The notes beneath the pieces are model-generated. The model was not told the origin of the DNA. It made no database searches and saw only the letters and a program-made list of their open reading frames with translations. The translations under genes and the position numbers were made by a program. From a virus, in the IMG/VR virus record IMGVR_UViG_3300036861_000610, positions 64,001 through 128,000 of that record: a stretch of 64,000 nucleotides of DNA, one strand, 5' to 3'. This document shows, in pieces, positions 24,331 through 52,212 of the stretch; position 1 is the first letter of the stretch, and the number at the start of each line of letters is the position of its first letter.

Positions 24331-24431
24331 CCAGCTAGATCTACAAAATCTCATTCTTCAGGGCAGCGCTGTGAGCCTCCTGGGGACTAAGGACTGTGCG
24401 TCCTTCTTCCTTCCCAAGAGAGGTTCCAGCT

Positions 24432-27395: not shown

Positions 27396-28090
27396 TGGCA
27401 ACAGTTTGTTTCACCCCATTCAAGATCCCGCGGATCCGGGTGACGCGGCTGAACTCGTGCGGCCAGGTCGTTACGGGTAGCTGCTCGCAGGTCGTGTCCG
27501 ACGGCATCATTTCCATCGAAATGACGAAGAACTACGAGGACCGTGAAGAGTTCTTCGTCAAGAACGGTGACGGTACGTTCTGTGTCCGTGAGACCAACCC
27601 GCCGATCCTGAAGTGGATCGACTTGGTCATCACCCTGTGCAATATTGACCCAGACATCGTCAACATCGTCGCGGCTGAACCGTTGTACACGTCTAACGAC
27701 ACTGCGGCCACAAAGATCGGTTACTCGACCGACGAGAACTCGGCCCAGAACGTGAACTTCAGCCTGGAGGGTTGGACTCGTCTGGCCAACACGGCGACGC
27801 TGTGCACGGGTGGCCAAGAGTATGGATACTTCCTCTGGCCGTGGGTCGTGGAGGGCACGATCGGCGACATGACGTTGGAGAACGGCGTCGCCAACTTCAC
27901 CATCAACGCGCGTACTCATGGCAACTCGCTGTGGGGCGTTGGTCCATACAACGTCGACTACAGCGATAACCCAATCGGGTCTACGACGCCGGTACCGATG
28001 AACACACCCATCACATCCACGCAGCACAGCCGCATGTTTATTACGCGGCTGCCACCGCCAGCGGCTAGCTGTGGCTGCGCAGCAGTGTAA
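27395..28090 (+). CDS. Major tail (tube) protein
   Basis: RVTRLNSCG..V.DGIISI, EEFFVKNGDG.FC, YGYFLWP and WGVGPYNV motifs typical of this actinophage tail family. Confidence 0.8.
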   Translation: MATVCFTPFKIPRIRVTRLNSCGQVVTGSCSQVVSDGIISIEMTKNYEDREEFFVKNGDGTFCVRETNPPILKWIDLVITLCNIDPDIVNIVAAEPLYTSNDTAATKIGYSTDENSAQNVNFSLEGWTRLANTATLCTGGQEYGYFLWPWVVEGTIGDMTLENGVANFTINARTHGNSLWGVGPYNVDYSDNPIGSTTPVPMNTPITSTQHSRMFITRLPPPAASCGCAAV

Positions 28091-32250: not shown

Positions 32251-32322
32251 TCGTTAAACTGGTGCGCAGTGCCGCTTGCCCTGCCTGCGCACATCACATG
32301 AGCTTTGAGGGGTGATGTTGTC

Positions 32323-34449: not shown

Positions 34450-37400
34450 TGGGAATTTACAACCCCCGCAACCCACAGAACATCGGCCAGGAATGGGTGC
34501 CGATCCGCGATGAGGACTTGGTCCTCAACCCGTTCGCGAACACAATCGAACGTGGTTACAGCTTCCGGCTACCAACCTCCACAACTGTTGACAATGTTCA
34601 CTTCTACCTGAAGCAGTGGCCGAATGAATTCGGCAGCAATATGGTCTACACGGCCAGCATTTATCCGAACGGACAGGAAGCGGCCTCAGGTCCTGTACGT
34701 TCGGTCATTATTCCATGTAACTATGCCGAGGTCACAGGGTCGGCAATCATTCAGACTTTTCCTGGTCTAACCACTGCCCAGAATTTGTTTGCCAATGGCG
34801 ACAACTACTTTTTGTTCTGGACCATGGGGCAGGCCAACCCCGAAGAATGGGGTTTGTCAACATTTTTCGCTGTCAATAGTTATGCACCGCTACTGAATGG
34901 TAAGCGTATCCTCGGCGTTGACCTACTCGCGGGTATCAATGTACTAAATCAAGGTTTCAGCATCGAGGAATCTTTCCAGAGTGTTCGCGTAGATGTGGCA
35001 ACAGACTTTGGCTACACCCCTCTCTCTTATGACACGATGCGTCTGCCGGACCTGATCACTAATCGGACCCCGGAGTCAACAAAAGAAACTGTGCGCATGC
35101 ACATGGGCGATGCTAACCGTTTCTTTGGGGTTGGAAGCGGGACAAGCGCCGGCATTAATCAAATCATGCCTTGGACCTTTTCTGAATTGGCACGATTTGA
35201 GGCCGGGGCAGTAAATAGACTTCGTGTCAGATTCGGGGAGTCTGGGGTTTCGGCTGCACTGGGACCACAGTTCCAGTTCGAATATTGTGCTCTGGAAGTG
35301 TTTTATTGCGAAGAGTCCCGGGTCGCCATGGGCTCGAAAATATTCAATGACGATATTCCTAATCGGCCCTCACGTGATCCTTTTGTACTGGGCGCCAATT
35401 CCATCACTGTTCGTAACCCATTAACTGCAGCCACTGGTCCAATTCTGCCCAATGGTGACTACACGGTCACTATCTCTGAATCGAACCTTGGCGACAACTA
35501 CTACGCCAATCTATATCGCACCGTGGCCCAATTGAACGAAGTTCGACAGCTATACGAGCTGCCCTCGCACCCGGGCGTACAAATCAACCTACCGTTCCCG
35601 CTGAACGAGAATACGATTGGCTCCGAGTTCACGAGCCAGTCGACAGACCTAATTCCTCAGCTGACGATGCACACGTCCACGGGCGCACTGATCGAATACA
35701 GCCACGTCTATGGTCAGCAGTCCGCGGCGCAGGTCTACTCCACCAACACCGCCAGCCAGGAGGTCGACGACCGCTTCGTGGGGGCGGCTCGCCAGTGGCC
35801 GTGGGTAAGGTACTACGCCCGCCGGTTCGGCAAAACAACTATTCCACTGCGCTTGGACAGTGCGAGTCCCACCGTATCCGGGTCCGCCTTCGCGGTTCAG
35901 ATCACGCCAACGGAATTTGACGCCCTCCCGGAAATCACCGATGGCTGGAAGGAGATCACGCTCCGATTCCCCACCCCTCCGACCATGGGTACCGGCTCGG
36001 TCCCCACCTGGCGCTGGTCGGCCACCAACGAAACCGCCGGCAACCGCTGGGAGGTGCTTGGTGCAACTGCCCCCGCCGTCTCAGGAATCGTGCAGGACGT
36101 CAACACCAACTTCTGGCTGCCTTTCGCCCAGGTTCCTACCCCCCAGCGGCTATACCTTGGCACTTATGGCTACCCCGTGTCCGGCGCAGCCATCAACGAG
36201 GACTGGCTTCCGCAGTGGGGGCCGTACGTCTCAGGTACAACCTTCGACAACGCTTCCGATGCAGTCATCATCTTCTCGCAGTACATTCCGCCAATCACCG
36301 GCTTCGGCGTCATCACTGCGAGCCAAGCAATTACGGGAATTGGGCAGAACTGCGGTATCGATCCCTGTGGAATACCAACAGATATTCTCTACAATCGACT
36401 GTTCTGGAGCCCTCCAGTAAACACTGGATCTGCGTGGGATGACTTCACTCGAACTGTGAGTAATAGCCTTGGGACGTCCTCGTCGGGAGGCACATACTCG
36501 ACCACAGGGGCCGCCACGCAGTATGCCGTAAACGGAACCCAAGCGGTGTTTACGCCTGACACTACTGCCGTACAGGCTATTGGCACATTGCCCATTGGCC
36601 CTAACTTCGACGTAACGGTGAAGTTCTCTCTCAATGGAATTCTGAATGCCTCTAGCTCCGCCCGGGTGGGAGTCGTTGGTCGCTTTACCGACTCCAACAA
36701 CTTCTATGACGCCACTATCACAACTATCGCCGGAAGTATTACGTCCGTATCAGTGCGAAAAGTCGTGGCTGGCGTTACTACAATCTTGGATTCATTGTCA
36801 CCGGCTGCACCGAGTTTTGACTATGGGAACATGGTCAATATTCGATTCATGGGATCGGGACCATTCCTGAAGGCGAAGGTGTGGAGTGATCACGTCGATG
36901 AACCAACAATGTGGTTGCTGGAGTTCACCGACACCTCCTTGACGACCGGGAACGGGGCCGGGATCGCAGCGTCGGTCACCACCAACAGTCTCGGCTTGTC
37001 GGTTCTGTTCGACGACCTTCGGATTACGCCGCCGCAGTTCTGGTTCGGCTCCTACGAGCTGCAGCGCTCAGACGAGATCACCGACTGGCAAACAATCATG
37101 TTGGCCACAAATCCAGCTGTCACTGGCTTCAATGACTACGAAGCCCGCACCGGCATGATCAGCAACTACCGCATCCGAACCCTGGACCACTATGACTTCC
37201 CAAGCGACTGGTCGAATACCGTCAGTATCAGTCTGGCCTCGCCAGGAGTCTCTGGCTCATGCCTGAGCCAGGCCCATGTCATGATCTTCACAACGAACGA
37301 ACATCAAAGCGGCTATTCTAACTTGGCTTACTCCAACGCATGGGAGGGCCAGGTAAACGAAGACTTCGCCTTCGCCGAGGCCGGATTCACGCAGCTGCAG

Positions 37401-37712
37401 CCGATGTATGACCGCGATTTCTTCACTGCGTTCAGGCCAAGAGAGCGTGGCGGCGACCAGTTCGGTCGAACACTCCTCGTCCAGGCCGCAGCCATCGACC
37501 CGGCCACATTGCCCGGATTCAAGGCGCTGAGCGACATGGCCTGGGCGGACGTGTCCTACATCTGCGTCCGCGACGAAGACGGCAACCGCTGGTTCGCCAG
37601 CATCAACGTTCCCTCGGGCGTGGTGCAGAATCGCCGACAGCTTTATATGGCCACTGTTCAGATCGTGGAAGTCACTGACACGCCATCACCGGTGGACCCG
37701 ACATGGCCTTAA
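34449..37712 (+). CDS. Large minor tail protein (possible receptor-binding domains)
   Basis: 1087-aa beta-rich, T/S/G-rich ORF directly after the tape measure; DDFTRTVSNSLG lectin-like segment. Confidence 0.7.
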   Translation: MGIYNPRNPQNIGQEWVPIRDEDLVLNPFANTIERGYSFRLPTSTTVDNVHFYLKQWPNEFGSNMVYTASIYPNGQEAASGPVRSVIIPCNYAEVTGSAIIQTFPGLTTAQNLFANGDNYFLFWTMGQANPEEWGLSTFFAVNSYAPLLNGKRILGVDLLAGINVLNQGFSIEESFQSVRVDVATDFGYTPLSYDTMRLPDLITNRTPESTKETVRMHMGDANRFFGVGSGTSAGINQIMPWTFSELARFEAGAVNRLRVRFGESGVSAALGPQFQFEYCALEVFYCEESRVAMGSKIFNDDIPNRPSRDPFVLGANSITVRNPLTAATGPILPNGDYTVTISESNLGDNYYANLYRTVAQLNEVRQLYELPSHPGVQINLPFPLNENTIGSEFTSQSTDLIPQLTMHTSTGALIEYSHVYGQQSAAQVYSTNTASQEVDDRFVGAARQWPWVRYYARRFGKTTIPLRLDSASPTVSGSAFAVQITPTEFDALPEITDGWKEITLRFPTPPTMGTGSVPTWRWSATNETAGNRWEVLGATAPAVSGIVQDVNTNFWLPFAQVPTPQRLYLGTYGYPVSGAAINEDWLPQWGPYVSGTTFDNASDAVIIFSQYIPPITGFGVITASQAITGIGQNCGIDPCGIPTDILYNRLFWSPPVNTGSAWDDFTRTVSNSLGTSSSGGTYSTTGAATQYAVNGTQAVFTPDTTAVQAIGTLPIGPNFDVTVKFSLNGILNASSSARVGVVGRFTDSNNFYDATITTIAGSITSVSVRKVVAGVTTILDSLSPAAPSFDYGNMVNIRFMGSGPFLKAKVWSDHVDEPTMWLLEFTDTSLTTGNGAGIAASVTTNSLGLSVLFDDLRITPPQFWFGSYELQRSDEITDWQTIMLATNPAVTGFNDYEARTGMISNYRIRTLDHYDFPSDWSNTVSISLASPGVSGSCLSQAHVMIFTTNEHQSGYSNLAYSNAWEGQVNEDFAFAEAGFTQLQPMYDRDFFTAFRPRERGGDQFGRTLLVQAAAIDPATLPGFKALSDMAWADVSYICVRDEDGNRWFASINVPSGVVQNRRQLYMATVQIVEVTDTPSPVDPTWP

Positions 37713-38827
37713 CGAACTTCCCGTACGATCCGCTGCTCGACCTGGCTCCTTGGGTCGGGCAGCGGCAGTGCACCTACCGCTTCGTCCGAATGAACAGCGT
37801 CACTGGCCAATTTATGGGTGAAGTTCATCCGATCCGATCCAGTCCGACAATCTCTCACGACACTACTCGGACAATCAAGCGGCAGCTCAACTTGAGCCTA
37901 GGTGCCGAGGACACTCGCGACATCAATGTGATCCAGGATCGGATCATCCCGTACATGGTGTTCCCAAACGGCGCCGAATATCAGCTCGGGGTGTTCGTCT
38001 TCACTCAGCAGTCGAATCAGATCTTCACTAGTGGTGAATTGTCAAACGTTGTATTGAATGACGAGATGTACATAATCGACCAACAGATAACCAAAGGATT
38101 TGACGCCTCAAATCTGTCACTAACGGCCACAGCTGGTGTTCCAAATGTTGTCATTGGAACGGGCATTGCCAACCGCGGCGCTTCTCTTAGTAGGGTATTG
38201 AACATCCTCCTAGAGGATTTCAATGTCCGTGTTGAAATCGAGTCATCTGAGTTCGTAGTTAATCAGTCCTGGTCGGCCGGGACGATGCGCGGTTCCATCA
38301 TCGAGGCAGCTGCCCTAGTTACGGACTATTTCAGCCCATGGTTTGATAATCAAGGAATTTTCCAATTCATCCGGGCATTCAACCCAGCTTTGGCTATCCC
38401 TGATTTCGATTGGGACGCAGGCAACCAGGTGATGCGGTCCAGTATTCTGCAACAATCTGACGTACTTAACGCCCCAAATCGCTTCGTTGTTATCTCGAAT
38501 GCCCCTGGAGAGCCTGGCGCCGCAGTCTTCGGTATTGCGGACGTTCCCGTCAATGCACCGAACTCGTTCGAGAACCGTGGATTCTACATTCCAAGCGTTG
38601 TTGATATGCAGGTGCTGAACATCCCACAATGTCAGGCAATTGCTCGGAATTTGGCCGAACGTCAAACCATCGTAGAGACAACCACGCTAACAACAGCACC
38701 AGACCCTCGCCACGACAGCTATAACGTAATTAAGTGGCGAGGCGAACAATGGTTGGAGCTTTCCTGGCAGATGACGCTGTCCGAGGGGCAGCCCATGTCG
38801 CACACGCTAAGAAGGTCGTACCACTGA
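37703..38827 (+). CDS. Minor tail protein
   Basis: TIKRQLNL, YQLGVF and PDPRHDSYNVI motifs; synteny. Confidence 0.65.
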   Translation: MALTNFPYDPLLDLAPWVGQRQCTYRFVRMNSVTGQFMGEVHPIRSSPTISHDTTRTIKRQLNLSLGAEDTRDINVIQDRIIPYMVFPNGAEYQLGVFVFTQQSNQIFTSGELSNVVLNDEMYIIDQQITKGFDASNLSLTATAGVPNVVIGTGIANRGASLSRVLNILLEDFNVRVEIESSEFVVNQSWSAGTMRGSIIEAAALVTDYFSPWFDNQGIFQFIRAFNPALAIPDFDWDAGNQVMRSSILQQSDVLNAPNRFVVISNAPGEPGAAVFGIADVPVNAPNSFENRGFYIPSVVDMQVLNIPQCQAIARNLAERQTIVETTTLTTAPDPRHDSYNVIKWRGEQWLELSWQMTLSEGQPMSHTLRRSYH

Positions 38828-39864: not shown

Positions 39865-39997
39865 CGGAGTGTCGCGTACATCCTTGAAGTGTTGCGCCGG
39901 TCACCCTGTTAATGTGACCGGCGATAGAAAGCTGGGGCAAATTTGAACGCCTGACCGAGGTAAAGGAGTCCGTGATGGATGCGGGTGAAGGTCAACA

Positions 39998-41093
39998 GTG
40001 AAGGTGTGCGTGATGCCGGCAGACACCGCTGGCTGCGGTTTTCTATAGGCTCATCTGGTCGGCTGAGTACCTGCAGAACCTTGGGTACAACATCGAAATC
40101 CAGTACCCAAAGAACAAGGAGATGAACGACGGGAAGGACACCGGCCTAGAGGTTCACTTCCGGGGCACTGGGCTCTCTCAGGCTGACGCCGAAATTATCG
40201 ACGTCAAAATCCCCAACGACGCCGACGTCTTGGTCATGCAGCGCCTAAGCCATAACTGGCACGCCAAGGTCATTGAGATCCTCCGAGCCAAAGGCGTGGC
40301 CATGGTTATCGATATGGACGATGACCTCAGCTGCATCCACCCTGACAACAAAGCCTTCGTCAACTACCACCCCAAAAATCCGAGGACGCCTCACTCGTGG
40401 AAAAACGTCGAGCAGGCGTGCAAGGCCGCCACGATGGTAACTGTCTCCACACAGCAGCTCATGGGGGTCTACGCCCGCCACGGCCGCGGGCAGGTCATCG
40501 ACAACTACGTGCCCGAGCGTTACCTCCGGATCAAAGTCGATCAGGATAAGGTGTTCGGCTGGGCCGGGACGACGGACAGCCACCCGAACGACTTGCAGGT
40601 GACTGGCGGGGCGGTTCAGGAACTTATCAACGATGGCTACGAGTTCCGCGTCATTGGTCCAGTCACCCAGGCCAAAGGCGCCCTTCGACTGAAGGGGCAA
40701 CCCGAGCACACTGGCGTCGTGCAGCTGGTGAACTGGGCCTCGGAGATTGCCCGACTACAGGTCTCTATCGCCCCGCTGGCAGCGACCTCGTTCAACACCG
40801 GAAAGTCTCGACTCAAGCTTATTGAGGCCGCCTCTGTCGGCGTGCCGTGGGTTGGTTCCCCACGCGCCGAGTACCGTCGCTTCCACAAAGAGTCGGGTTC
40901 AGGCCTCCTCGTCGATAGCCGTAAAGATTGGTACAAGGCTGTCAAGCAGCTGATGGATGACGCCCCTCTTCGTCAAGACCTGGGTGAGAGGGGACGCGAG
41001 TATATGCGGGACCAGACGATAGAGAAGAACGCCTGGCGGCTATGGGAAGCCTGGGAGCGGGCTCTCAACATTCAGCGGCACGGTGGGAAGTGA
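39998..41093 (+). pseudogene. GT-B (GT4-like) glycosyltransferase with +1 frameshift near the start
   Basis: GTG 39998 gives MKVCVMPADTAGCG; FYRLIW... continues in another frame across GGTTTTC (T-run 40039-40042). Body has IDMDDD, GWAGT and FNTGKSRLKLIEA motifs. Confidence 0.75.
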
Positions 41094-41323
41094 GCAAGCT
41101 GAATCGGGAGCAGGCGCTTTCGGCCATCGAACGAGGTTTCCGCGAAGACCCAGACGACGATCCCCGCATGGGAGTCGACGGCGGCTGGTGGCATCCCGAC
41201 AACGGTGACACATTCGTCACGCTGTTCGAGCTGCTGGTCGACAAGCATGGCCTGGACCCAGACGATGCTTACGGCATTCTCGGCGGAGCGTTCGGAGCGG
41301 CAGCCGATGAATACGGAGACTGA
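41090..41323 (+). CDS. Hypothetical protein
   Basis: GTGA overlap with the upstream gene. Confidence 0.55.
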   Translation: MSKLNREQALSAIERGFREDPDDDPRMGVDGGWWHPDNGDTFVTLFELLVDKHGLDPDDAYGILGGAFGAAADEYGD

Positions 41324-41606
41324 TCCGGCGGTCACGTTGGAGAACCTGACCGCTGGCTACAGGGAACGGCTCCAGCGCCACACCGAAGAGCTAGAGGTGA
41401 TTGTCCCTCTGTGGTGGGTGGGGAAATGGGGGCATGAGGCTGTGGCTGCTGCAGCCGCCCGTCTCCACGTCAAGGTAACAGCGGTCGACGCCTGGCAGGA
41501 CGACAACGAAAGCCGCCTCACTGCACTCGTATTTGAAGCCGGCACCTGGCACGTCGAGCGCGGCCCGGCCATCGACCTATCTGGAGTACAGCAGCATGGA
41601 ATCTGA
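41307..41606 (+). CDS. Hypothetical protein
   Basis: Overlapping operon packing. Confidence 0.5.
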   Translation: MNTETDPAVTLENLTAGYRERLQRHTEELEVIVPLWWVGKWGHEAVAAAAARLHVKVTAVDAWQDDNESRLTALVFEAGTWHVERGPAIDLSGVQQHGI

Positions 41607-42261
41607 GCCACGTGGGCGCGCAGCCTTCATCATGGCCCACAATCGCCAGGAGCTTCTCGACCAGACCGTTGCAGCAATCAGGCCACAGGTCGACACGCTC
41701 ATGGTGATGGACAACGCCTCCAACCCTAAGCTCACGGTGCCAGAAGACGTGGGTCTCATGTACGTGCCAGACCAGCCGCCGAACCTGGCGCAGTTCTGGA
41801 ACATGGGGCTGGACTTCTACAACTACTGGTACAAGGACCGCCCCTACGACGTGGCCCTGCTCTGCGACGATGCGATCGTTCCGGAGGGCTGGTTCACCGC
41901 AGTAACGCAAGCCATGCGGGAACACGACGTCACCGCCGGATCAACCAACCCATGGGGTCGACCGCACGCCCCCATCGTCAAACGGGACATGGACAGCGAC
42001 ATCATGAACCGGATGTGCAGCTGGGCGTTCATCATCGACGGCAGCAGCCCCGTCCGGGCCGATGAATCGATGCACTGGTGGTGGGCGGACTCCGACTTTG
42101 ACATTCAATGTCGCCGCGAGCGTGGAACTGTCCTGATCAGTGGCCCTCCAGTTCCCAACGTTCAACCAAATCATTACACGAACATCAGGCCAGATCTTGC
42201 TGAACAGGCTGGTCGAGATCGGGAAACATTTGCCGCTAAATACGGTCGCCTCCCTTGGTAG
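41596..42261 (+). CDS. GT-A (GT2-like) glycosyltransferase
   Basis: MAHNR..LL, VMDNAS, WNMGL, LCDDA and WADSDF motifs. Confidence 0.85.
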   Translation: MESEPRGRAAFIMAHNRQELLDQTVAAIRPQVDTLMVMDNASNPKLTVPEDVGLMYVPDQPPNLAQFWNMGLDFYNYWYKDRPYDVALLCDDAIVPEGWFTAVTQAMREHDVTAGSTNPWGRPHAPIVKRDMDSDIMNRMCSWAFIIDGSSPVRADESMHWWWADSDFDIQCRRERGTVLISGPPVPNVQPNHYTNIRPDLAEQAGRDRETFAAKYGRLPW

Positions 42262-42791
42262 TCAAAGAAGAGCGTTGGCTGCCAGTACCCGGCCGCACCG
42301 GATATGAGGTTTCCGACCATGGACGCATTAGAAGTTATCGAAACCGTCAGGGTCACCCAATCCCGGAACCTCGCTTCATGACCCCAACGATCGTAAATGA
42401 CTACCTGTGGATAAAGCTAGGGCGCAATTTTCAGTGCGGGCTTCATCGACTGGTCGCACTAGCCTTCCTTGGGCCGGCCCCTGAAGGGATGGAGGTTCGA
42501 CATCTTGACGGTAATAAGCGCAACGCTCGGCTGGAGAATCTGACTTACGGCACGCAAGCCGAAAATTATGCCGACCGGCGAATCCACGGTACGGACAGCA
42601 GTGGTGATCGGCATGGCAACCGAAAGCTTGCCCAGCGAGGTGAGCCCGTGTCCTACAGACTAACCGCAGCCGACGTGGCGCGTATTAGAACCACCTCAAT
42701 CTCCGGACCAATCCTTGCGAAGGAGATGGGGGTATCGGCACACACAATTTACGCGGCACGACACAGAAGAACCTGGAAGCACCTGCCATGA
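42255..42791 (+). CDS. NUMOD4-HNH homing endonuclease
   Basis: EERWLPVPG..GYEVSDHGRIRS; HRLVALAFLG...VRHLDGNKRN..LENL.YGT.AEN. Confidence 0.9.
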   Translation: MVVKEERWLPVPGRTGYEVSDHGRIRSYRNRQGHPIPEPRFMTPTIVNDYLWIKLGRNFQCGLHRLVALAFLGPAPEGMEVRHLDGNKRNARLENLTYGTQAENYADRRIHGTDSSGDRHGNRKLAQRGEPVSYRLTAADVARIRTTSISGPILAKEMGVSAHTIYAARHRRTWKHLP

Positions 42792-42988
42792 TTTCGACCA
42801 TGGACCACCTGCCATTCCCGGGCATGACGGCCGACCAGAGGAGGGTCCTAATTCGGTGGCTGTACTCCGCGGCCGACCGGGAGACCCATCGGCAGCGTCG
42901 AGCAACCCGGACACAGGACAGACTACGGCACTCTATCCGAGCCAGCGCCTTCCAGGACGCCATTGCCGAGCTGGAGCAGGAGTCGTGA
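42788..42988 (+). CDS. Hypothetical protein
   Basis: ATGA/GTGA coupling on both sides. Confidence 0.5.
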   Translation: MISTMDHLPFPGMTADQRRVLIRWLYSAADRETHRQRRATRTQDRLRHSIRASAFQDAIAELEQES

Positions 42989-43944
42989 TCAAGAAGAAGC
43001 GGCGGATCTTCGTCATCGCCACCGATAGCGCTGGATGTTGGTGGTACCGGCTTCGGCTGCCGTTGATGGCACTGCATCCGGACGAGTTTGAGGTTGTCTG
43101 GGAGCCTCCGTTCAACAACTGGCTCCCAGGGGACATCGTCGTTGGCCAGCGGATCGCCGGCCGCAATACAGCATGGCTGGAGATGTGCGACGCTCCTGGC
43201 CTGACTGCGGTCTACGACATCGACGACAATCTGCTGGAGATCGACCCCGGCAACACGGTGCCGTACCAGATCTTCTCTCCGATTGTGGATGACACTGCGG
43301 CCAATATCTCGGCCGCACAGGTCGTGACGGTGTCGACTCCGAAGCTGGCGGAGCGCCTTGCACACCTGAACAAGAACATCGTGGTGCTGCCGAACTGTCT
43401 GCACGAGTCCTGGATCGCCCGCATCGAGTTCCCATCGCCGTACATCACGGTCGGTTGGGCTGGCAGCCCGTTCCACAGCCAGGACTTCGGGGGTGCGGCT
43501 GGCCAGTTCCGCATCTACGCGGAAGCTGAGCCTCGGGCTCGGTTCCACATGATTGGCGGAGATCCGACCTTTGGCATGGTGAATCGGACAGTCTCTGGGT
43601 TCACGGACATGCATACCTACTGGAACAACCTTGACTTCGACATTGGGGTGGCGTTGTTGGAGGACAACGTCCAGAACCAATGCAAGTCATGGATCAAGGT
43701 GTTGGAGTATGCCGGCAAAGGCGTCCCGGCCGTGGCTCCTCGGATCGGACAGTATCCCGAGTTCATCGAGGATGGGGTCAACGGATTCCTGTACGACCAC
43801 GTCTCAGAATTGTCGACACACCTGTTGACCTTGTCCAAGGACGATCTTCGTTCGAGAATGAGCGAAGCAGCCATGTCCAAGGCGTCTGAGTACACCATCA
43901 GTCGCCAGATTCATCGCTGGGAAACCGTCTACCGAGAGGCGTGA
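42985..43944 (+). CDS. GT-B (GT4-like) glycosyltransferase
   Basis: DSAGCWWYRL, YDIDDNL, VTVSTP.LA, VGWAGS..H and NQCKSWIKVLEY motifs. Confidence 0.9.
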   Translation: MIKKKRRIFVIATDSAGCWWYRLRLPLMALHPDEFEVVWEPPFNNWLPGDIVVGQRIAGRNTAWLEMCDAPGLTAVYDIDDNLLEIDPGNTVPYQIFSPIVDDTAANISAAQVVTVSTPKLAERLAHLNKNIVVLPNCLHESWIARIEFPSPYITVGWAGSPFHSQDFGGAAGQFRIYAEAEPRARFHMIGGDPTFGMVNRTVSGFTDMHTYWNNLDFDIGVALLEDNVQNQCKSWIKVLEYAGKGVPAVAPRIGQYPEFIEDGVNGFLYDHVSELSTHLLTLSKDDLRSRMSEAAMSKASEYTISRQIHRWETVYREA

Positions 43945-43945
43945 C

Positions 43946-44173
43946 ATGGCCGGCGATTCACAGCCACCACCCATCGCGACCCAGGGTCCCTTAGTGAAGG
44001 ACCTACTTATCGCCGACATTGAAGAGCTGTGCGCCCGCCGACAGACGAAGTACGGCACCCACCTTCAGGCCGGCAACGGCCGCGACGCTCTTCGGGATCT
44101 GTACGAAGAACTGGTCGATGCCGCCCTCTACATCAAGCAGGCGATCATGGAAAGGGATGGTCATGCAGCGTGA
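43946..44173 (+). CDS. Small all-alpha, MazG/NTP-PPase-like phage protein
   Basis: KYGT.L...GRDALRDLYEELVDAALY (EExxD) motif. Confidence 0.55.
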   Translation: MAGDSQPPPIATQGPLVKDLLIADIEELCARRQTKYGTHLQAGNGRDALRDLYEELVDAALYIKQAIMERDGHAA

Positions 44174-45371
44174 AACATGCGGCAGCTGCCACTCTGCAGA
44201 CCTGATCCAGGTCCTGGACCTGGGCACCTCGCCGCTGGCTGACGACTTCCCCCACTCTGCGTCCGAGGCCATGGAACAGACTCGGTATCCACTGGGACTG
44301 GTGACCTGTGCGCAGTGCTCGCTGCTCCAGCTCACCGAGATCGTGGACGACCAAGAGCTGTGGGGCGGTGACTACGGCTTCTACACCGGATCGTCCTGGG
44401 TGGCCGTCCAGCAGCAGCAGCAGTATGCCGATGACCTTCTGTGGCGCTATCGAGACCTGACCAAGGGCCTCGTCCTGGAGATCGCCTGCAACGACGGGTC
44501 CATGCTGTCCCGCTTCGCTGAGGCTGGTTGCCGGACTTTGTGCGTGGATCCGGCTGTTGGGCCGACCACAAAGGCTCGACAGTCAGGCCTCGACGTCATC
44601 GTGAAGGGCTTTGGACGGGAGGCGGCCCAGCAGGTGCTCAACGAGTACGGCTGGGCGGATCTTGTGGTGGCCAACAATGTCATCGCCCATGTAGCCGACC
44701 TGGACGATTTCGTCACGGGCCTGGCCATGGTGATGAGCCCCCAGGGCCGGCTCATAGTCGAGTTCCAGTACGCGGCCGACCTGATTACCGGCAACATGAT
44801 CGACCACGTCTACCACGAGCACCGATCTTTCTTCTCTCTTTCTTCTCTCAGCTGCGCACTTGAGCGGCATGGACTCAAGGCTGTGGACGTCCAGCAGACA
44901 ACTCCTCAAGGCGGCTCCCTGCGAGTGCACGTTGGCCGCATGGGCGATGAACTCGTCAACAGCAGCGTGACCACACTGTTGTTGGAGGAGAAATGGATGC
45001 TTGATCCCGGCAGTCTGGCCGGGATGCAGGGGCGCGCCAATCGGATCCGGCAGCGTTTGCGGGATCTGCTGTGGGAGCAGAGCCGTGCTGGGCGTCGAGT
45101 GGCCGGCTACGGCGCCTCAGCCAAGTCCACCACGCTGCTGAACTTCTGCGAGATCGAGTCGGGGCTGGTGCAGTACTTCATCGACTCCACGCCGATGAAG
45201 CACGGACGGTTCACCCCCGGTACCGGTATCCCGATCATTGACCCACGGTCGGACTCGCGGGCGCCCGACACAATGCTCCTTTGTGTTTGGAATTACGCAG
45301 GGGCAATAATGCGACGTGAGCGATTTGATGGTCAGTGGATTGTCCCCATCCCGATTCCGGTAATGATGTAG
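44163..45371 (+). CDS. NDP-hexose C-methyltransferase (EryBIII/TylCIII/TcaB9 family)
   Basis: CxxC..VLDLG..PLAD.F...CxxCxLLQL Zn domain; LEIACNDG; NNVIAHV; YHEH; GGSLR; YGASAK..TLLN; K.GRFTPGTGIPI; WNY. Confidence 0.92.
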   Translation: MQRETCGSCHSADLIQVLDLGTSPLADDFPHSASEAMEQTRYPLGLVTCAQCSLLQLTEIVDDQELWGGDYGFYTGSSWVAVQQQQQYADDLLWRYRDLTKGLVLEIACNDGSMLSRFAEAGCRTLCVDPAVGPTTKARQSGLDVIVKGFGREAAQQVLNEYGWADLVVANNVIAHVADLDDFVTGLAMVMSPQGRLIVEFQYAADLITGNMIDHVYHEHRSFFSLSSLSCALERHGLKAVDVQQTTPQGGSLRVHVGRMGDELVNSSVTTLLLEEKWMLDPGSLAGMQGRANRIRQRLRDLLWEQSRAGRRVAGYGASAKSTTLLNFCEIESGLVQYFIDSTPMKHGRFTPGTGIPIIDPRSDSRAPDTMLLCVWNYAGAIMRRERFDGQWIVPIPIPVMM

Positions 45372-45373
45372 CA

Positions 45374-45604
45374 ATGGCCTTTGATGACAGCGAGGACTGG
45401 GCTCGCGCGAGCAAAGATTTCTGGTTCCGGACCTACAGCGAGGACGCGCCGTCACCGCGCCGTGCGACCATCGTGGCCCGCGGTGACCAGTACCTGCACG
45501 CGGCGGAGGAGCGGGCCGAGAGGGGCCTGGCCGCCATGGCCACCGCCTATGCCGCTATTGCACAGGCGCACTACTACAAGGCGACAAAGCTGGTGAGCCA
45601 GTGA
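45374..45604 (+). CDS. Hypothetical protein
   Basis: Fills the operon gap; GTGA coupling downstream. Confidence 0.5.
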   Translation: MAFDDSEDWARASKDFWFRTYSEDAPSPRRATIVARGDQYLHAAEERAERGLAAMATAYAAIAQAHYYKATKLVSQ

Positions 45605-46242
45605 TCCTGCTGACCGGAGGTTCGGGGCAGCTCGGCAAGGAGCTGTGCAAGCTCAACGATTTCTATGCCCCGTCGCGGGCGGAACTGGACATCACGAACC
45701 AGAAACAGGTCTACCGGACCCTGCAGGAACACGAGCCGGACCTGATTGTCCACGCTGCGGCCTACACCAACACCCTGGGTGCCGACCAGGATGTCGACCA
45801 GATGGTCACCTGCTGGCAGACAAACGTCCTGGGCACCCGGAACCTAGTCGATTATGCCCAGTGCCCCATCATCTACATCTCCACCGAGGCGGCGATCCAT
45901 CCGTACTCGTTCTACATCCTTTCCAAGTTGCAGGCAGAGATGGAGGTTTCGCGGCACAAGTACGGCTACACCAACATCCGTACCTCGTTCCGCGAAGACC
46001 CATTCGAATACCCCCGTGCCTTCACTGATATGTGGACGATCGGGGACTACACCACAGTCATCGCCTGGATGATCAATGACCTGATCAATGGGCGCCCCGT
46101 GCAGAACAAGACGATCTGGCTCGGCACCGGGGCAAAAACCGTGTTTCAGCTGGCTACCCGCACTCGGCCAGACGTGAAGCCTTGTCTGCGCAGCGACCAC
46201 AGCCCATACCTGCCCTCACTGGAAGAACTGGTGGACCTATGA
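45601..46242 (+). CDS. RmlD-like NDP-4-keto-6-deoxyhexose reductase (short extended-SDR)
   Basis: ILLTGGSGQLG, ELDIT, HAAAYT, YISTE and YxxxK (YILSK). Confidence 0.85.
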   Translation: MILLTGGSGQLGKELCKLNDFYAPSRAELDITNQKQVYRTLQEHEPDLIVHAAAYTNTLGADQDVDQMVTCWQTNVLGTRNLVDYAQCPIIYISTEAAIHPYSFYILSKLQAEMEVSRHKYGYTNIRTSFREDPFEYPRAFTDMWTIGDYTTVIAWMINDLINGRPVQNKTIWLGTGAKTVFQLATRTRPDVKPCLRSDHSPYLPSLEELVDL

Positions 46243-47207
46243 CCCGCGTGCTAATCACTGGAATTTCGGGACAGGCCGGCGGCATCTTGGCCAAACAGTG
46301 TCTGGCCAAAGGGGACACCGTTTTTGGTCTGCTTCGGTGGGTGTCGACCAACAAGCGGCACCAGCTGCAGCTGCAGCTGCCTGGTATCGAGCTGCTCGAC
46401 GGCGACCTCCAGGACCAGGCGTCACTGGAGCGGGCGCTGGCCATCGCCCAGCCCGATATCGTCTACAACCTCGGCGCTCTGGCCTCCTCTGGTCAGAGCT
46501 GGAACCAGCCAATGGCCATGGCCGAGATCAATGCGGTCGGACCGCTGAAGATGCTCGAAGCCATCAAGGTGCACAACAAGAACATCCGCTTCGTGCAGGC
46601 CTCGACGTCAGAGCAGTACGGCCGGGTCAATGAGCAGCCGCAGTCGGAGAAGACTCCGTTCGGCAGTCTCAACATTTACGGCGTTGCCAAGACGTTTGCC
46701 CACCAGGCCACCATCAACTACCGCGATAGTTACGGCATTCACGCATCTACATGTCTTATGCATAATTACGTTTCCTTGGACCGTAATCCATATTTTGTGG
46801 ACCGGAAAATCACACGCGCCGCGGCCCGCATCAAGGCGGGCCTCGATCACGAGTTGCGACTGGGCAACACCGACGCCTCCCGTGACTGGGGTTGGTGCGA
46901 GGAGTACATGCAGGCATGGCAGCTCGTTGCCGCGCATCACGAGCCCGGTGACTACGTCATCGCCACCGGCGAAACCCACACTGTGCAGGAGTTTGTCGAC
47001 AGGGCCTTCGCCTACGTCGGCCTCAACCCGGCCGAGTATGTGGTGCACGATCCGGCCTTCATGCGACCAACCGACATCCTGGAGCTGCGCGGTGACCCTA
47101 GCTACATCAAGAAGACCCTTGGCTGGGAGGCCACCGTCAAGTTCGACCAAATCGTCGAGAAGCTGGTTCAGCATGACCTTGATCAAATCGGCGGCACTCG
47201 TGGCTGA
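46239..47207 (+). CDS. gmd: GDP-mannose 4,6-dehydratase
   Basis: LITGISGQ.G, QASTSE.YG, YGVAK, RKITRAAARI, LGN.DA.RDWG, DYVIATGETHTV and RPTD..L.GD. Confidence 0.9.
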   Translation: MTRVLITGISGQAGGILAKQCLAKGDTVFGLLRWVSTNKRHQLQLQLPGIELLDGDLQDQASLERALAIAQPDIVYNLGALASSGQSWNQPMAMAEINAVGPLKMLEAIKVHNKNIRFVQASTSEQYGRVNEQPQSEKTPFGSLNIYGVAKTFAHQATINYRDSYGIHASTCLMHNYVSLDRNPYFVDRKITRAAARIKAGLDHELRLGNTDASRDWGWCEEYMQAWQLVAAHHEPGDYVIATGETHTVQEFVDRAFAYVGLNPAEYVVHDPAFMRPTDILELRGDPSYIKKTLGWEATVKFDQIVEKLVQHDLDQIGGTRG

Positions 47208-47979
47208 ACCTGAGCCCGAGTCGCCATTGGTCTCAGTGATCACGCCCACCTTCCCGGGTCGGGAGAAGGTGCTGCTGGAGCGGTGCATTCCGTCGGTGTG
47301 GGGTCAGAACTACCCAGGCCCCATCGAGCATGTCATCGTCACAGACGAGAACCCGAAGCTGGAGCTTCTTCTCGATGAGATCAAGTACCAGCGGTGGTGG
47401 CAGCTCGAAGAAGACCAAGTGGACCAGACCACAGGAGCGCGTCGTACGTCCCGGGTTGTTCAGATCAACGACATCTGGAAAAACCCGGCCGCACGGGCCG
47501 GCGAACGAGGTCTCCACGTCACCCAGAACAATGGGGCGTGGCCGTGGTTTCTTGGTAGCTTCCTGGGCCTCGGCCAATTCATGTCGTTTCTCGGCGACGA
47601 TGACGAGCTGCTATCGCATCACGTGTCCGCCCACGTGCGGGCCATGCAAACAGCCAGTGCGATGTGGTCGTTGTCGAGAATCGAGTTCCGGGCTCACGGC
47701 GCGTTTTGGAACGTCATCGGTGACGAGTCCTACGCTGAAGGGCACCTTGATGCAACCGGCATCATGTGTTGGAAGGATGCGTTGACCATAGCCAACTGGG
47801 ACCCGTGGGCAGGTATTGCCGCCGTGGACTGGAAGCTTGTCAATGACTGGCGTCAGCATTCGCTGCCAGGGATATTCATCCCCGATATTACTGGCGTCCA
47901 TCACGACGGGTGGCTCACGGGCTCAACAGGAAAGCCCTATCATGATCCGCCACCACCGCTGGCGATCCCCTCCCCGTAG
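47200..47979 (+). CDS. GT-A (GT2-like) glycosyltransferase
   Basis: PLVSVITPT..R...CI.SV.GQ.Y...EHVIVTD; FLGDDD; DW motif. Confidence 0.88.
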   Translation: MAEPEPESPLVSVITPTFPGREKVLLERCIPSVWGQNYPGPIEHVIVTDENPKLELLLDEIKYQRWWQLEEDQVDQTTGARRTSRVVQINDIWKNPAARAGERGLHVTQNNGAWPWFLGSFLGLGQFMSFLGDDDELLSHHVSAHVRAMQTASAMWSLSRIEFRAHGAFWNVIGDESYAEGHLDATGIMCWKDALTIANWDPWAGIAAVDWKLVNDWRQHSLPGIFIPDITGVHHDGWLTGSTGKPYHDPPPPLAIPSP

Positions 47980-47996
47980 GAGAGAGAGAAGGAACC

Positions 47997-48608
47997 GTGT
48001 CTAACCTTCGACCCGGTATCACGTGTCTTGTGGCCTGCCACCCGGAGCGTCTCTCCAACGGCCTAGCCGTGGAGTCGCTGGCTTCCATTGCCCGACAGAC
48101 CATGCAGCCAGACACCATCATTCTGGTAAACGACATGGAACGGGCTGGAGCCGGCCGCACTCGCCAGAAGCTTCTGCGCATGGTAGAAACCGAGTGGCTG
48201 GCCTGGTGCGACTCAGACGACCTTCTGCTACCTAAGCACCTGGAGACACTCTATAACCGGGCCCAGGAGACTGGCGCGGTGTTCGTCAACGCCTGGTTCA
48301 ATGCCCCTCACGACCCGCTCGGACACTTTGGCAAGCTTTTAGACCCTTGCAACCCACATCACACCACCATTACCTTCATGGTGAAAACCGAGCTGGCTCA
48401 GGAAGTTGGCTTCGAAGAATCCCTGGAAGACAGCCCATTTTCCGAAGAGGACTGGCGCCATATCGCCGGCATTGCAGCTCTGTGCTGTGAGCGCGGACTG
48501 AAAATGGAGCATGTCCCCGAGAAGACGTGGTGGTGGCGTCAGCAAGGACAGAACACGTCTGGCCTTCCACGGGGTGGCGACATAGTACAAAAGATTCTGC
48601 ACCGATAG
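47997..48608 (+). CDS. GT-A (GT2-like) glycosyltransferase
   Basis: SIARQT..P, GAGRTR, WLAWCDSDD and EEDW motifs. Confidence 0.88.
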   Translation: MSNLRPGITCLVACHPERLSNGLAVESLASIARQTMQPDTIILVNDMERAGAGRTRQKLLRMVETEWLAWCDSDDLLLPKHLETLYNRAQETGAVFVNAWFNAPHDPLGHFGKLLDPCNPHHTTITFMVKTELAQEVGFEESLEDSPFSEEDWRHIAGIAALCCERGLKMEHVPEKTWWWRQQGQNTSGLPRGGDIVQKILHR

Positions 48609-48617
48609 TCTGCCCTT

Positions 48618-49451
48618 ATGCCTACGTATGTGCAGCTGGGTTCCGAGGCTGTGTGGGGTGCTCAGTTCATCCCGCCGGTAATGAACGCTGGGCTGATCGG
48701 TCCGCTTCGAGTGTTCTATGGGCTGAGTTTCAATGCAGTGGGCTCCGCAGGAGACAACAACCACCTGTACGGCCGGCATCGCAGCTACAACTGGGACGTG
48801 TTGTCCAGGTTCTGCACGGACCGCGCATACGGCACCACGGATTCACGAGACCAGGGCGGCGACCGTAACTGGTATCGCGCAGTAGACGTCGGAATCACGG
48901 GCCAGCAGCTTTTCGACGCCAGTCACCGCATGGACGCGCTAGCACGTTCTGGAGAATGTCCAGGCCTCGCGGAATGGTTCGGCACCTTCGACGGAGTAAA
49001 CGTTGTTGGCTGGTTCCAGGGACAACCGGCCAGCTCCGACAGTTCGCACCTACTCCACCTTCATGCCGGAGTGTGGAACCAATACGCCAATGACGCTGCC
49101 ACCATGCAGCAGATTTATGGGGCCATCACTGGCACCGGAGGATCGCCACAGAAAGGCAAGGACATGTACGTCATTAGGGCGTGGCAAACCGGCGGCACCT
49201 ACAGCACCAATGGCACCACCTACTATCACCTCAGCAGTGGAGACCTAGTCGCCGCGGCCCTACGGATCGCCGGCCAGACCGAGCCAATCCCCATCGATGC
49301 GGGCGAGCTGCCCGCGTTTGGGGTAGACATTGAGTCGCTGCCGGTCACCTGCAACTGCGACTGCGGTGGAAGCGGCGGCGACGCAGGGCCCAGCGTGGCT
49401 CAGATCGCCGATGGGGTCGCAGACGAGCTGCGCCAGCGACTGGAGAGTTAA
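48618..49451 (+). CDS. Endolysin (Zn peptidase, M15/LAS-like)
   Basis: GD..H..GRH.S...AVDVG...SDSSHLLHLH (H, D, HxH ligands); precedes a holin-like gene. Confidence 0.7.
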   Translation: MPTYVQLGSEAVWGAQFIPPVMNAGLIGPLRVFYGLSFNAVGSAGDNNHLYGRHRSYNWDVLSRFCTDRAYGTTDSRDQGGDRNWYRAVDVGITGQQLFDASHRMDALARSGECPGLAEWFGTFDGVNVVGWFQGQPASSDSSHLLHLHAGVWNQYANDAATMQQIYGAITGTGGSPQKGKDMYVIRAWQTGGTYSTNGTTYYHLSSGDLVAAALRIAGQTEPIPIDAGELPAFGVDIESLPVTCNCDCGGSGGDAGPSVAQIADGVADELRQRLES

Positions 49452-49452
49452 G

Positions 49453-49908
49453 TTGCCTATCACACGTTCCAGGGTCCTCGTCCGCGCTCGCTACGGCTGG
49501 CCGCAGAAGACGGTCCCCTTTCATAAGACTGCGTTCCATCAGCCCGACGGTTACCGGACGGATGCCGCGGGGTATGTCAGCATGTGCTGGGACATCCCGC
49601 TGGGTGCGAAAAATTCGTGGGGTGGCCTGTCGACGGTTTCCATGGATACCGACGGCTGGTGTCAGGAGATTGACCCGATGGACTTGAAGCCCGGCGATGC
49701 ACTCGGGCTACTCGGACACGGGTCTGTTGGTCCCGACGGCGGAACGATCGTTCTGTTTGAATCGTGGCTGAATGGGGATTACACGACAAACTACGCAATC
49801 ACCTGGGAAATGCTCCCGGATGCATCTCCCGGGCCAGTCCGACGGCAACGTCCGTACGAGGGACACCGGTGGCACAGCTACAGGTATCGCGACATCATCG
49901 ACGACTGA
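49453..49908 (+). CDS. NlpC/P60-fold protein lacking catalytic Cys/His
   Basis: ITRSRVL.RA...GYRTDAAGYVSM.W...DLKPGDAL...GTIVLF; the canonical DCSG and GH are replaced. Confidence 0.7.
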   Translation: MPITRSRVLVRARYGWPQKTVPFHKTAFHQPDGYRTDAAGYVSMCWDIPLGAKNSWGGLSTVSMDTDGWCQEIDPMDLKPGDALGLLGHGSVGPDGGTIVLFESWLNGDYTTNYAITWEMLPDASPGPVRRQRPYEGHRWHSYRYRDIIDD

Positions 49909-49980: not shown

Positions 49981-50331
49981 ATGCGGAACGTGTCCTGGCC
50001 CTTGGCGGTGATGGTCTCCGTCGCAATGTTGGTCATTGGGGCTACGGCTCTACTTGATCGGGACATTGCGGGGGTGAGTGCGGCCATCACCACGATCTTG
50101 ATTGCACTGGGCCTGGCCGAACTTCGTGAGATCAAGACAAACACGAATGGAAACAACACTAGCCTGCTGGAACAGAACAAGGCGCTGATGGCAGAGATTG
50201 CCCAGTACCGACGGGATGCCCTCGACATCACCAACCGGGCTCTGGACTCCCAGCCGCTGCCCCAGCCGCCGAACTCAACCACCACAACTACGTCGCACTC
50301 CTCCAACGTTCCCAACCCGCCAGGCGCCTGA
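49981..50331 (+). CDS. Holin-like membrane protein
   Basis: Two hydrophobic helices followed by IKTNTNGN; lysis-module position. Confidence 0.6.
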   Translation: MRNVSWPLAVMVSVAMLVIGATALLDRDIAGVSAAITTILIALGLAELREIKTNTNGNNTSLLEQNKALMAEIAQYRRDALDITNRALDSQPLPQPPNSTTTTTSHSSNVPNPPGA

Positions 50332-52167: not shown

Positions 52168-52212
52168 AAAAAAGGGACTGGTCCCCGCCAGCCGTAGCTG
52201 ACAGGGACCAGT
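52168..52212 (-). terminator. Intrinsic terminator
   Basis: ACTGGTCCC...GGGACCAGT stem followed by T6 on the minus strand. Confidence 0.7.

Follow-up and report, generated by a model that had tools for sequence, protein, structure and literature searches.

Why would an actinobacteria-infecting phage carry a block of sugar-nucleotide enzymes and glycosyltransferases 3′ of its tail genes? The source phage is uncultured and comes from soil; its 148-kb genome is complete, and the relatives of its major capsid protein are actinophage capsids only. Within the window, by which we mean the whole 64,000-nucleotide stretch that was analysed, the enzyme genes (39998–48608) all lie on the plus strand and 3′ of the tail genes, with the tape measure (32305..34449) and a tail protein (37703..38827) encoded upstream. 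[quoted passage not shown] It had also set them between tail and lysis genes; the tail side was borne out, whereas the downstream "lysis" genes gave no match in Pfam, PHROGs, NCBIfam, PDB or the phage records, and among them a single ORF (49981..50331) looks holin-like, with one strong hydrophobic segment. Features that it did not mention are a +1 frameshift in the first GT-B gene, an HNH endonuclease between two glycosyltransferase genes and four small ORFs. Every cassette protein was free of hydrophobic segments (KD19 < 1.4) and was classed as soluble. No promoter or terminator signals above chance were found inside the block, which is therefore considered part of the tail operon, and the reading frames overlap between the short SDR and GMD and between GMD and GT-A2, suggesting translational coupling.

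The GMD gene (46239..47207, plus strand), whose start overlaps the SDR stop, encodes a protein that matched PF16363 (310.9 bits; cut-off 27). Against the TIGR01472 equivalog it scored 272 bits, below the cut-off of 415, and the dTDP-glucose dehydratase model gave only 98.8 bits. In the alignment with Pseudomonas aeruginosa GMD (1rpn; E 4e-79), STSE paired with STSE and YGVAK with YGVAK (Thr/Glu and YxxxK); the catalytic residues of GMD are T126, E128, Y150 and K154 (PMC3539893). Homologues of this enzyme were present in 112 phage records, its dN/dS against three relatives was 0.04–0.13, and its predicted product is GDP-4-keto-6-deoxymannose.

CMT (44163..45371, plus strand) was assigned by Pfam and PDB matches to the TylC3/TcaB9/KijD1 family, which acts on NDP-4-keto-sugars. 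Its three-part architecture comprises PF08421 (57.9 bits), the SAM domain PF13489 (50.3 bits) and PF08484 (125.7 bits), all above their cut-offs, and the TylC3, TcaB9 and KijD1 structures matched with E values from 1e-58 to 3e-63 (4rv9, TylC3, 3e-63; 3ndi, 1e-60). The Cys4 zinc site (C6, C9, C49 and C52) and Y217-H218-E219-H220 align with TylC3; across 26 homologues, C49, C52 and Y217–H220 were invariant and C6 and C9 nearly so. Relatives were found in 7 of 50,697 phage records, all at no more than about 30% identity, and dN/dS against the same three relatives was 0.10–0.19.

The third enzyme, a short SDR of 213 aa (45601..46242, plus strand; PF04321, E 1e-18), has an RmlD fold and is a putative 4-ketoreductase. 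Its structural model reached a pLDDT of 97, and the best PDB folds were all RmlD (3sc6, 8g22, 1vl0 and 4wpg; TMq 0.76–0.82). The roughly 120 nearest homologues are also about 213 aa long, and in this family of short proteins GxxGxxG, S94, Y105 and K109 are invariant; dN/dS was 0.10–0.29. Assignment as a full-length RmlD (about 285 aa, TIGR01214) was rejected, given the length of 213 aa and a match of 51.5 bits that was below the cut-off of 224 and confined to residues 2–96. The three tailoring enzymes are of the families first proposed, with catalytic residues kept, genes coupled and dN/dS values of 0.04–0.29 against three relatives.

Five plus-strand genes encode glycosyltransferases. GT-B1 (39998..41093) and its paralogue GT-B2 (42985..43944) are of GT4 type: GT-B1 matched PF13524/PF13692 and phrog_7162 (E 2.7e-35), and GT-B2 matched phrog_7162 (E 1.7e-38), with Pfam scores slightly below the cut-offs; Streptomyces phages Zuko and KimJongPhill have relatives of GT-B2. 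The reading frame of GT-B1 is broken by a +1 frameshift at GGT TTT CTA TAG (about 40039–40047), and its start at 39998 is valid only if this frameshift is read through; otherwise the gene begins at 40122, with an uninterrupted ORF of 40122..41093. Residues 1–15 of the intact 349-aa homologue in L004, a related phage, correspond to 39998–40042 and residues 15–345 to 40041–41078 in another frame. The same frameshift occurs in an independent soil metagenome, in which a contig from run X2 covers 39828–40187 without gaps.

The other three enzymes are GT2 or GT2-like, and DXD-type motifs are present in the translations of all three, PF00535 being matched by GT-A3 alone. GT-A1 (41596..42261) is GT2-like, with Atlas features at 0.99 to viral GT2 clusters and a CDDA motif; Pfam and PHROG searches gave no match, and homologues at 37–56% identity were present in 14 related phage loci (including L002–L010, L012, L013, L024 and L032). 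GT-A2 (47173..47979) had Atlas features at 0.98 and a structural TM score of 0.72 to GT2 clusters, no Pfam match and no relatives among the 50,697 phage records; its homologues (38–59%) lie immediately 3′ of GMD in 16 viral loci, plus L041 and L100. GT-A3 (47997..48608) matched PF00535 (E 6.6e-10, 39.6 bits) and phrog_14775 (E 4.8e-30), with relatives in Streptomyces and Arthrobacter phages. The boundary between GT-A1 and GT-B2 is occupied by an HNH/NUMOD4 homing-type endonuclease (42255..42791, plus strand; PF13392, E 1.4e-15; PF07463; phrog_59), an insertion shared at the same spot by L013 only and missing from L004 and others. Frame and GC3 supported the four small plus-strand ORFs, namely an acidic one of 93 aa (41042..41323; 51% homologue in L004) and others of 99 aa (41307..41606), 75 aa (43946..44173; 71% homologue in L004) and 76 aa (45374..45604); those of 93, 99 and 76 aa had no Pfam match.

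The phage enzymes grouped into a single clade (SH-aLRT 98; 40 rows) in a tree of CMT sequences. GMD lay within 3 kb of CMT in 33 of the 40 rows inside this clade versus 1 of 52 outside it, and the adjacency was seen in 31 of 40 viral or metagenome loci versus 2 of 52 bacterial-genome loci when counted by source. CMT–GMD adjacency is a clade-specific phage trait, and its junctions often have overlapping stop and start codons. Among related loci the recurrent unit is CMT–GMD–GT-A2, rather than the minimal three-enzyme route of GMD, methyltransferase and reductase that had been postulated: the reductase occurred in only 6 of 42 related viral or metagenome loci (L002–L004 and L098–L100), all of them closest relatives. 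Four related phages (L002, L003, L005 and L010) kept CMT without GMD, so that CMT can evidently draw on another keto-sugar source. Some relatives carry an O-methyltransferase and an FAD oxidoreductase in place of GMD and GT-A2. In an unrelated lineage of smaller phages, of the L020 type, the CMT–GMD–GT-A2 core has the major head protein gene on one side and head-tail adaptor genes on the other. We found no published description of this module in the literature.

Because the CMT family requires a 4-keto group, GMD, then CMT, then the reductase is the sole chemically coherent order. GMD would convert host GDP-mannose to GDP-4-keto-6-deoxy-D-mannose, CMT would place a SAM-derived methyl group on the carbon beside the keto group, most likely C3, and the SDR would reduce C4 to give a GDP-6-deoxy-C-methylhexose. 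No nucleotidyltransferase was found in the 148-kb genome, which makes host GDP-mannose the feedstock that the phage tailors; the earlier notion of a sugar that the phage makes itself has to be given up to this extent. GT-A2, which accompanies CMT–GMD across several phage lineages, is most likely the enzyme that transfers the branched sugar, while the remaining glycosyltransferases (two GT-A, the intact GT-B and the frameshifted GT-B1) would build the rest of the oligosaccharide. The GDP-sugar specificity of CMT and the SDR, the methylated carbon, the assignment of individual sugars to individual glycosyltransferases and the acceptor are inferred, and the evalose or virenose identity first proposed, like the stereochemistry, goes beyond what the sequence supports. 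The full reading, in which late-expressed, soluble enzymes, encoded by the last genes of the virion operon, carry this sugar to the virion, has in our estimate a probability of roughly one half. The absence of the reductase from most CMT–GMD relatives and the frameshift in GT-B1 were counted against it, as were the four phages that have CMT but no GMD, the dTDP-sugar use of solved CMT-family members, the failure of the glycosyltransferases to match Corndog gp36–38, and virion proteins that show no long Ser/Thr tract.

The acceptor would most likely be a virion protein, by analogy with mycobacteriophages in which virions are O-glycosylated, namely Che8 (cluster F), Corndog (cluster O) and Myrna (cluster C) (Freeman et al. 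2023, Cell Host Microbe 31:1216, as cited in PMC12363180 and PMC13313380). Glycosyltransferase genes of Corndog are experimentally implicated in this process according to the same two papers; the enzymes reported to be required are Corndog gp38 and Che8 gp110. As in these three phages, the host is an actinobacterium, and several genes for soluble glycosyltransferases plus a methyltransferase lie inside the virion structural operon; Corndog genes 35–38 directly precede the major head gene. Decoration of capsid and tail proteins is the presumed purpose common to both, with the glycan of the cassette predicted from its genes alone. When Corndog gp34–39 were compared with every cassette protein by BLASTP, no match had an E value below 0.1. 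Unlike the mycobacteriophage systems, which as far as is known use host sugar nucleotides and an ordinary small methyltransferase, the cassette adds NDP-sugar tailoring enzymes of its own (GMD, CMT and the reductase). Judged purely by gene position, the glycan chain would probably form a coat on the virion, and the L020-type core between capsid and adaptor genes gives positional support for a virion target.

The same sugar pathway could instead serve to glycosylate host envelope polymers late in infection, such as cell-wall polysaccharide, teichoic-type or lipoglycan precursors at the cytoplasmic face; the effect would be receptor masking, with progeny spared loss on debris and rival phages excluded. 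GT2 and GT4 enzymes of such kind often use lipid-linked or cell-wall acceptors, the bacterial CMT relatives are located in polysaccharide-type loci, and the holin-like gene adjoins the cassette end. An envelope target would also fit the want of a recognisable protein acceptor tract: a search of the capsid, tail tube and tail proteins revealed no long Ser/Thr tract, and only short S/T/P-rich C-terminal tails occur, in the tail tube protein and the ORF at 27042..27395. However, the block has no membrane-anchored glycosyltransferase, flippase or polyprenol-phosphate transferase, its proteins are all soluble, and the window bears no sign of a lysogenic-conversion strategy such as Gtr-type systems typically follow. 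Envelope modification is also hard to square with a virion-operon position in two unrelated lineages, and we consider it rather unlikely.

For the chemistry, the nearest precedent is the LPS virenose of Coxiella burnetii, a 6-deoxy-3-C-methyl sugar for which a GDP route through GMD, the TylCIII-like CBU_0691 and a reductase/epimerase has been proposed (PMC3539893). The logic is the same, leading from GDP-mannose through a 4-keto-6-deoxy intermediate and TylC3-family C-methylation to C4 reduction, but the Coxiella route is an in silico proposal with a GMER-type epimerase/reductase in a bacterial LPS locus, whereas the phage has a short RmlD-fold SDR. Phage CMTs form a clade apart from the sampled bacterial relatives, a sample that did not extend to Coxiella. 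The antibiotic deoxysugar 3-C-methyltransferases TylC3, TcaB9 and KijD1 (PDB 4rv9, 3ndi and 5t64) have the architecture, Cys4 site and YHEH motif in common with phage CMT; their substrates are dTDP-2,6-dideoxy or amino sugars, whereas the sole dehydratase partner of phage CMT is GMD, which would imply a GDP-sugar substrate. What points to this GDP linkage is solely the clade-specific adjacency to GMD. We know of no solved CMT-family member with a GDP-sugar, TylC3, TcaB9 and KijD1 all using dTDP-sugars. The "LPS" sugar clusters of cyanomyoviruses (P-SSM2, S-CAM7 and others) likewise have a viral GMD that tailors a host GDP-sugar; their GMD homologues are 38–42% identical to the phage enzyme, but no C-methyltransferase partner has been reported for them.

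In a different chemistry, CMT would methylate C5 (NovU-like), or its substrate would be a 4-keto sugar of the host linked to dTDP or another NDP; with such a substrate, GDP-D-rhamnose or GDP-6-deoxy-D-talose would be the product of a separate route through GMD and the SDR. Activity of the family has been shown with TDP-sugars only, all characterised members using dTDP-sugars (PMC3539893), and sources label the relatives "NovU / D-mycarose 3-C-methyltransferase" indiscriminately. The four related phages with CMT and no GMD, and the dTDP-specific RmlD enzymes as nearest folds of the SDR, point the same way. Against this, the tight clade-specific CMT–GMD adjacency, in which stop and start often overlap, argues for one common substrate, and the phage encodes neither a dTDP-glucose dehydratase nor an epimerase or nucleotidyltransferase; we judge such chemistry to be improbable.

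It is very doubtful that the cassette mainly drains host GDP-mannose late in infection, weakening mannose-based envelope lipoglycans for easier lysis, with the glycosyltransferases secondary. The putative lysis region does lie directly downstream, lipomannan and lipoarabinomannan are a lysis barrier for actinophages (PMC13123898), and a mycobacteriophage protein is reported to inhibit the GDP-mannose-forming enzyme (PMC13596312). Yet CMT, the reductase and five glycosyltransferases, all under purifying selection, would be superfluous for a drain, and the L020 lineage has the core in its head module, far from lysis genes. Although GT-B enzymes glucosylate the DNA of T-even phages, base hypermodification of the phage DNA is hardly credible here, as no ThyA-family hydroxymethylase was found in the complete genome, the genes lie in a late structural operon apart from replication genes, and five glycosyltransferases with a multi-sugar chain are atypical for DNA modification.

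Among unrelated actinophage lineages the module changes place between the head and the tail operon, and it alternates with the O-methyltransferase/FAD-oxidoreductase variant; an arms race that diversifies a surface coat would be expected to leave this pattern. We tentatively propose, while holding it to be somewhat less than an even bet, that the phage CMT clade is GDP-specific and, with GMD and a dedicated GT2, puts a methyl-branched 6-deoxyhexose on virion proteins as such a diversifying coat. In that case the recurrent +1 frameshift in GT-B1 could be a switch that alters glycan structure. With dozens of soil phage contigs carrying it, the module is a trait of populations rather than an oddity of a single genome, and the compact three-gene core CMT–GMD–GT2 defined here is amenable to in vitro reconstitution. 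Phage virion glycosylation was reportedly first shown in 2023, with host-made sugars only. If true, a phage route to a C-methyl-branched deoxysugar would provide the first candidate for a GDP-dependent TylC3-family methyltransferase, bearing directly on the Coxiella virenose pathway. Its product, once on the virion, would be without precedent as a branched-chain sugar in the glycan of a virus, and the known synthetic repertoire of viruses would be broadened.

Gene calls based on stop-to-stop frames, third-position G+C and start-codon context resolved the region 39998-48608 into thirteen genes, all on the plus strand. Five encode glycosyltransferases: GT-B1 (39998..41093; PF13524/PF13692, phrog_7162), GT-A1 (41596..42261; an Atlas feature-similarity score of 0.99 to viral GT2 clusters), GT-B2 (42985..43944; phrog_7162, E 1.7e-38), GT-A2 (47173..47979; Atlas features 0.98, structure TM 0.72 to GT2) and GT-A3 (47997..48608; PF00535, phrog_14775). 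[quoted passage not shown] The family matches of the individual gene calls thus agree with the tally in the original prediction, which had missed an HNH gene, an interruption of GT-B1 and four small ORFs without a family match (41042..41323, 93 aa; 41307..41606, 99 aa; 43946..44173, 75 aa; 45374..45604, 76 aa). GMD overlaps its neighbours on both sides, its start with the SDR stop codon and its end with GT-A2. When the whole cassette was compared with phage records by megablast, no match was found.

The three tailoring enzymes were assigned from profile, structure and residue comparisons. GMD scored 272 bits against TIGR01472, as opposed to 99 bits against dTDP-glucose dehydratase, and aligned with P. 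aeruginosa GMD (1rpn, E 4e-79) at the catalytic Thr/Glu and YxxxK residues; because its score lies below the strict TIGR01472 equivalog cut-off of 415, it is best described as a divergent GMD. CMT matched TylC3 (4rv9, E 3e-63), TcaB9 and KijD1 across its full length, with the Cys4 zinc site and the YHEH motif intact. Among 26 CMT homologues, YHEH and two of the four cysteines were invariant and the other two cysteines nearly so. SDR comprises 213 aa, compared with approximately 285 aa for RmlD, and failed the RmlD equivalog model (51.5 versus 224 bits). A truncated pseudogene or fragment was nevertheless ruled out, since the nearest ~120 homologues are of about the same length, the family conserves GxxGxxG and an invariant Ser-Tyr-Lys triad, and the predicted model (pLDDT 97) has RmlD as its best structure matches (TMq ~0.8). 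Against three relatives with 65-94% identity, dN/dS was 0.04-0.13 for GMD, 0.10-0.19 for CMT and 0.10-0.29 for SDR.

The CMT family, as exemplified by TylC3 and TcaB9, requires a 4-keto group, and GMD, CMT and SDR in that order is therefore the only sequence in which all three enzymes could act on one sugar. Acting in this way they would yield a product of the GDP-6-deoxy-C-methylhexose class, and host GDP-mannose would be the starting material, given that no nucleotidyltransferase is encoded in the genome. Methylation in this family usually takes place at C3, with C5 as the position in the NovU type; CMT would accordingly be predicted to methylate C3, or alternatively C5. The original prediction had named the product as an evalose- or virenose-type sugar, which goes beyond the evidence, because neither the methylated carbon nor the face of C4 reduction is fixed by the sequence. 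Inversion at C3 has been described for TylC3-type methylation (PMC3539893).

Relatives of CMT indicate which parts of this pathway are maintained together. An alignment-based scan identified relatives on 39 IMG/VR contigs and at 56 bacterial-genome loci; a single-protein scan of viral contigs recovered none, so that the alignment query was needed, and a metagenome scan added only three short loci. Any CMT relative occurred in only 7 of 50,697 phage records, all at no more than ~30% identity. Of the 40 viral or metagenome loci included in the tree, 31 have a GMD homologue within 3 kb of CMT, usually abutting it, compared with only 2 of the 52 bacterial-genome loci. The phage CMTs grouped in a quick maximum-likelihood tree as a single clade of 40 rows (SH-aLRT 98); 33 of these rows were GMD-linked, against 1 of 52 rows outside the clade. 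This linkage is the best evidence available that the phage CMT clade works on the GMD product, as its members are predicted to do. One of the two GMD-linked bacterial loci, a 15.6-kb contig (L041) from a Jiangellaceae metagenome-assembled genome, carries CMT, GMD and GT-A2 in the phage order, and its CMT nests inside a viral subclade. It represents either phage sequence assigned to the wrong bin or a prophage, and it is a possible hint at the host.

Of the three tailoring genes, only two belong to the unit that is conserved among the relatives. The CMT-GMD pair recurs together with GT-A2, which lies directly 3′ of GMD in 16 viral loci, L041 and the related locus L100, whereas the reductase falls outside the conserved unit, with SDR confined to the loci L002-L004 and L098-L100. 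In lineages lacking SDR, the reduction may be carried out by GMD itself or by host enzymes; according to a summary in PMC3539893, some bacterial GMDs have been reported to possess reductase activity. Four members of the phage's own family (L002, L003, L005 and L010) keep CMT and have, in place of GMD and GT-A2, a Methyltransf_24 O-methyltransferase, a DAO-type FAD oxidoreductase and another GT2; this GMD-less sub-module spans 12009-14145 in L002, 11166-13308 in L010 and 11164-12740 in L005. The glycosylation cassette of L002 also contains an Amidase_2 domain fused to collagen-like repeats (7526-8512), for which no homologue was found in the present genome.

An HNH/NUMOD4 endonuclease gene (42255..42791; PF13392, PF07463, phrog_59) sits between GT-A1 and GT-B2 as a mobile insertion. 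Among the relatives, only L013 has an HNH gene at the same junction (~8374; a 47% homologue), and GT-A1 and GT-B2 abut in L004 and most others. Contigs from a second, independent soil metagenome run leave parts of the stretch uncovered, the HNH gene among them; a contig joint, 42945>47128, was disregarded, as one of its sides comprises only 21 letters.

GT-B1 itself contains a +1 frameshift, located at GGT TTT CTA TAG (40037-40048). Of the intact 349-aa homologue in L004, the first 15 residues align with 39998-40042 and the rest with 40041-41078 in another frame; the conserved N-terminus is restored if one T is deleted or if tRNA-Phe slips by +1 from TTT to TTC. An assembly error is unlikely: a 360-base contig from the second soil metagenome, which belongs to another study, spans 39828-40187 without a gap and retains the same run, both being compared as contigs rather than raw reads. 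It differs by a single substitution, T>G at 40039, which is synonymous when read in the upstream frame. The absence of an indel in this contig argues that the frameshift truly exists in the population, as opposed to having arisen once during assembly. GT-B1 could be a pseudogene, an N-terminally truncated glycosyltransferase starting at ATG 40122 and lacking the first beta-strand, or a recoding site; in rarity, CTA ranks only seventh among the codons.

The source record of 147,889 bp, of which the window covers bases 64001-128000, is 100% complete according to CheckV, the G+C content of the window is ~60%, and the stretch was found in two sequencing runs, both soil metagenomes, and in no listed RNA run. 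The relatives of the major capsid protein (24396..26138; phrog_777) occur only in phages of Mycobacterium, Gordonia, Microbacterium, Arthrobacter, Streptomyces and Actinoplanes, so that the host is an actinobacterium. The cassette was originally placed between tail and lysis genes. The tail side of that placement holds: the tape measure (32305..34449) and tail proteins (34449..38827) lie 5′ of the cassette, preceded by the major tail (tube) protein (27395..28090), and a portal gene with a fused protease-like gene, the capsid gene, a head-tail adaptor and, within the head-gene block, a 6,683-aa ORF with strong A-over-T skew (3831-23882) are likewise found on the plus strand upstream. The lysis side could not be verified, as the ORFs in 48618..49908 have no informative match. 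These two conserved ORFs occupy the expected place of an endolysin, between the cassette and a holin-like gene (49981..50331), the sole downstream ORF with a strong hydrophobic segment by hydropathy. The first (48618..49451) had no match in Pfam, PHROGs, NCBIfam, PDB or the 50,697 phage records. The second (49330..49908) matched nothing in the same four databases and only one unannotated contig, weakly, among the phage records; it has 59-69% homologues in related phages, and the predicted model of 49447..49908 reached a pLDDT of only 34. Further downstream, a 16-pair GC-rich hairpin with a T-run (52177-52212, minus strand), located where the long plus-strand late operon meets minus-strand genes, is likely a bidirectional terminator.

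With regard to what is glycosylated, modification of DNA is unlikely, because the genome encodes no ThyA-type hydroxymethylase and the cassette lies in the late operon. All cassette proteins are soluble by hydropathy, and no promoter or terminator signals above chance were detected between the cassette and the tail genes. L020 and its kin represent a smaller phage lineage, unrelated to the present one, whose genes at L020 465-11631 run in the order terminase, portal, protease, major head protein, two-domain glycosyltransferase, CMT, GMD, GT-A2 and head-tail adaptor. The presence of the module inside the virion-assembly operons of two unrelated lineages argues, by position only, for the virion as the target. 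Glycosyltransferase genes also lie inside the virion operon of phage Corndog, where genes 35-38 precede the major head gene; the cassette glycosyltransferases differ from Corndog gp34-39 in showing no BLASTP similarity to them. According to PMC12363180, which cites Freeman et al. 2023, Corndog gp38 and Che8 gp110 are essential for capsid glycosylation. GT-A2 had no relative in deposited phage genomes, and relatives of GT-B2 and GT-A3 were found only in the Streptomyces phages Zuko and KimJongPhill and in Racecar-type Arthrobacter phages. The structural proteins contain no long Ser/Thr tract; the sole candidate stretches for O-glycan attachment seen among them are short S/T/P-rich C-terminal tails on the major tail protein and on ORF 27042..27395, the small ORF that precedes it.

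Taken together, the pathway reading is soundly based as far as enzyme families are concerned, with the virion as a putative target and the exact sugar as a prediction. The cassette is a real, conserved variant of phage glycosylation cassettes and apparently an undescribed one, a full-text literature search having turned up no publication in which a sugar C-methyltransferase is linked to phages. To our knowledge, all characterised members of the CMT family use dTDP-sugars, and the use of a GDP-sugar by CMT, if true, would itself be new. Such use, as predicted here, would parallel the GDP route proposed for Coxiella virenose (PMC3539893).
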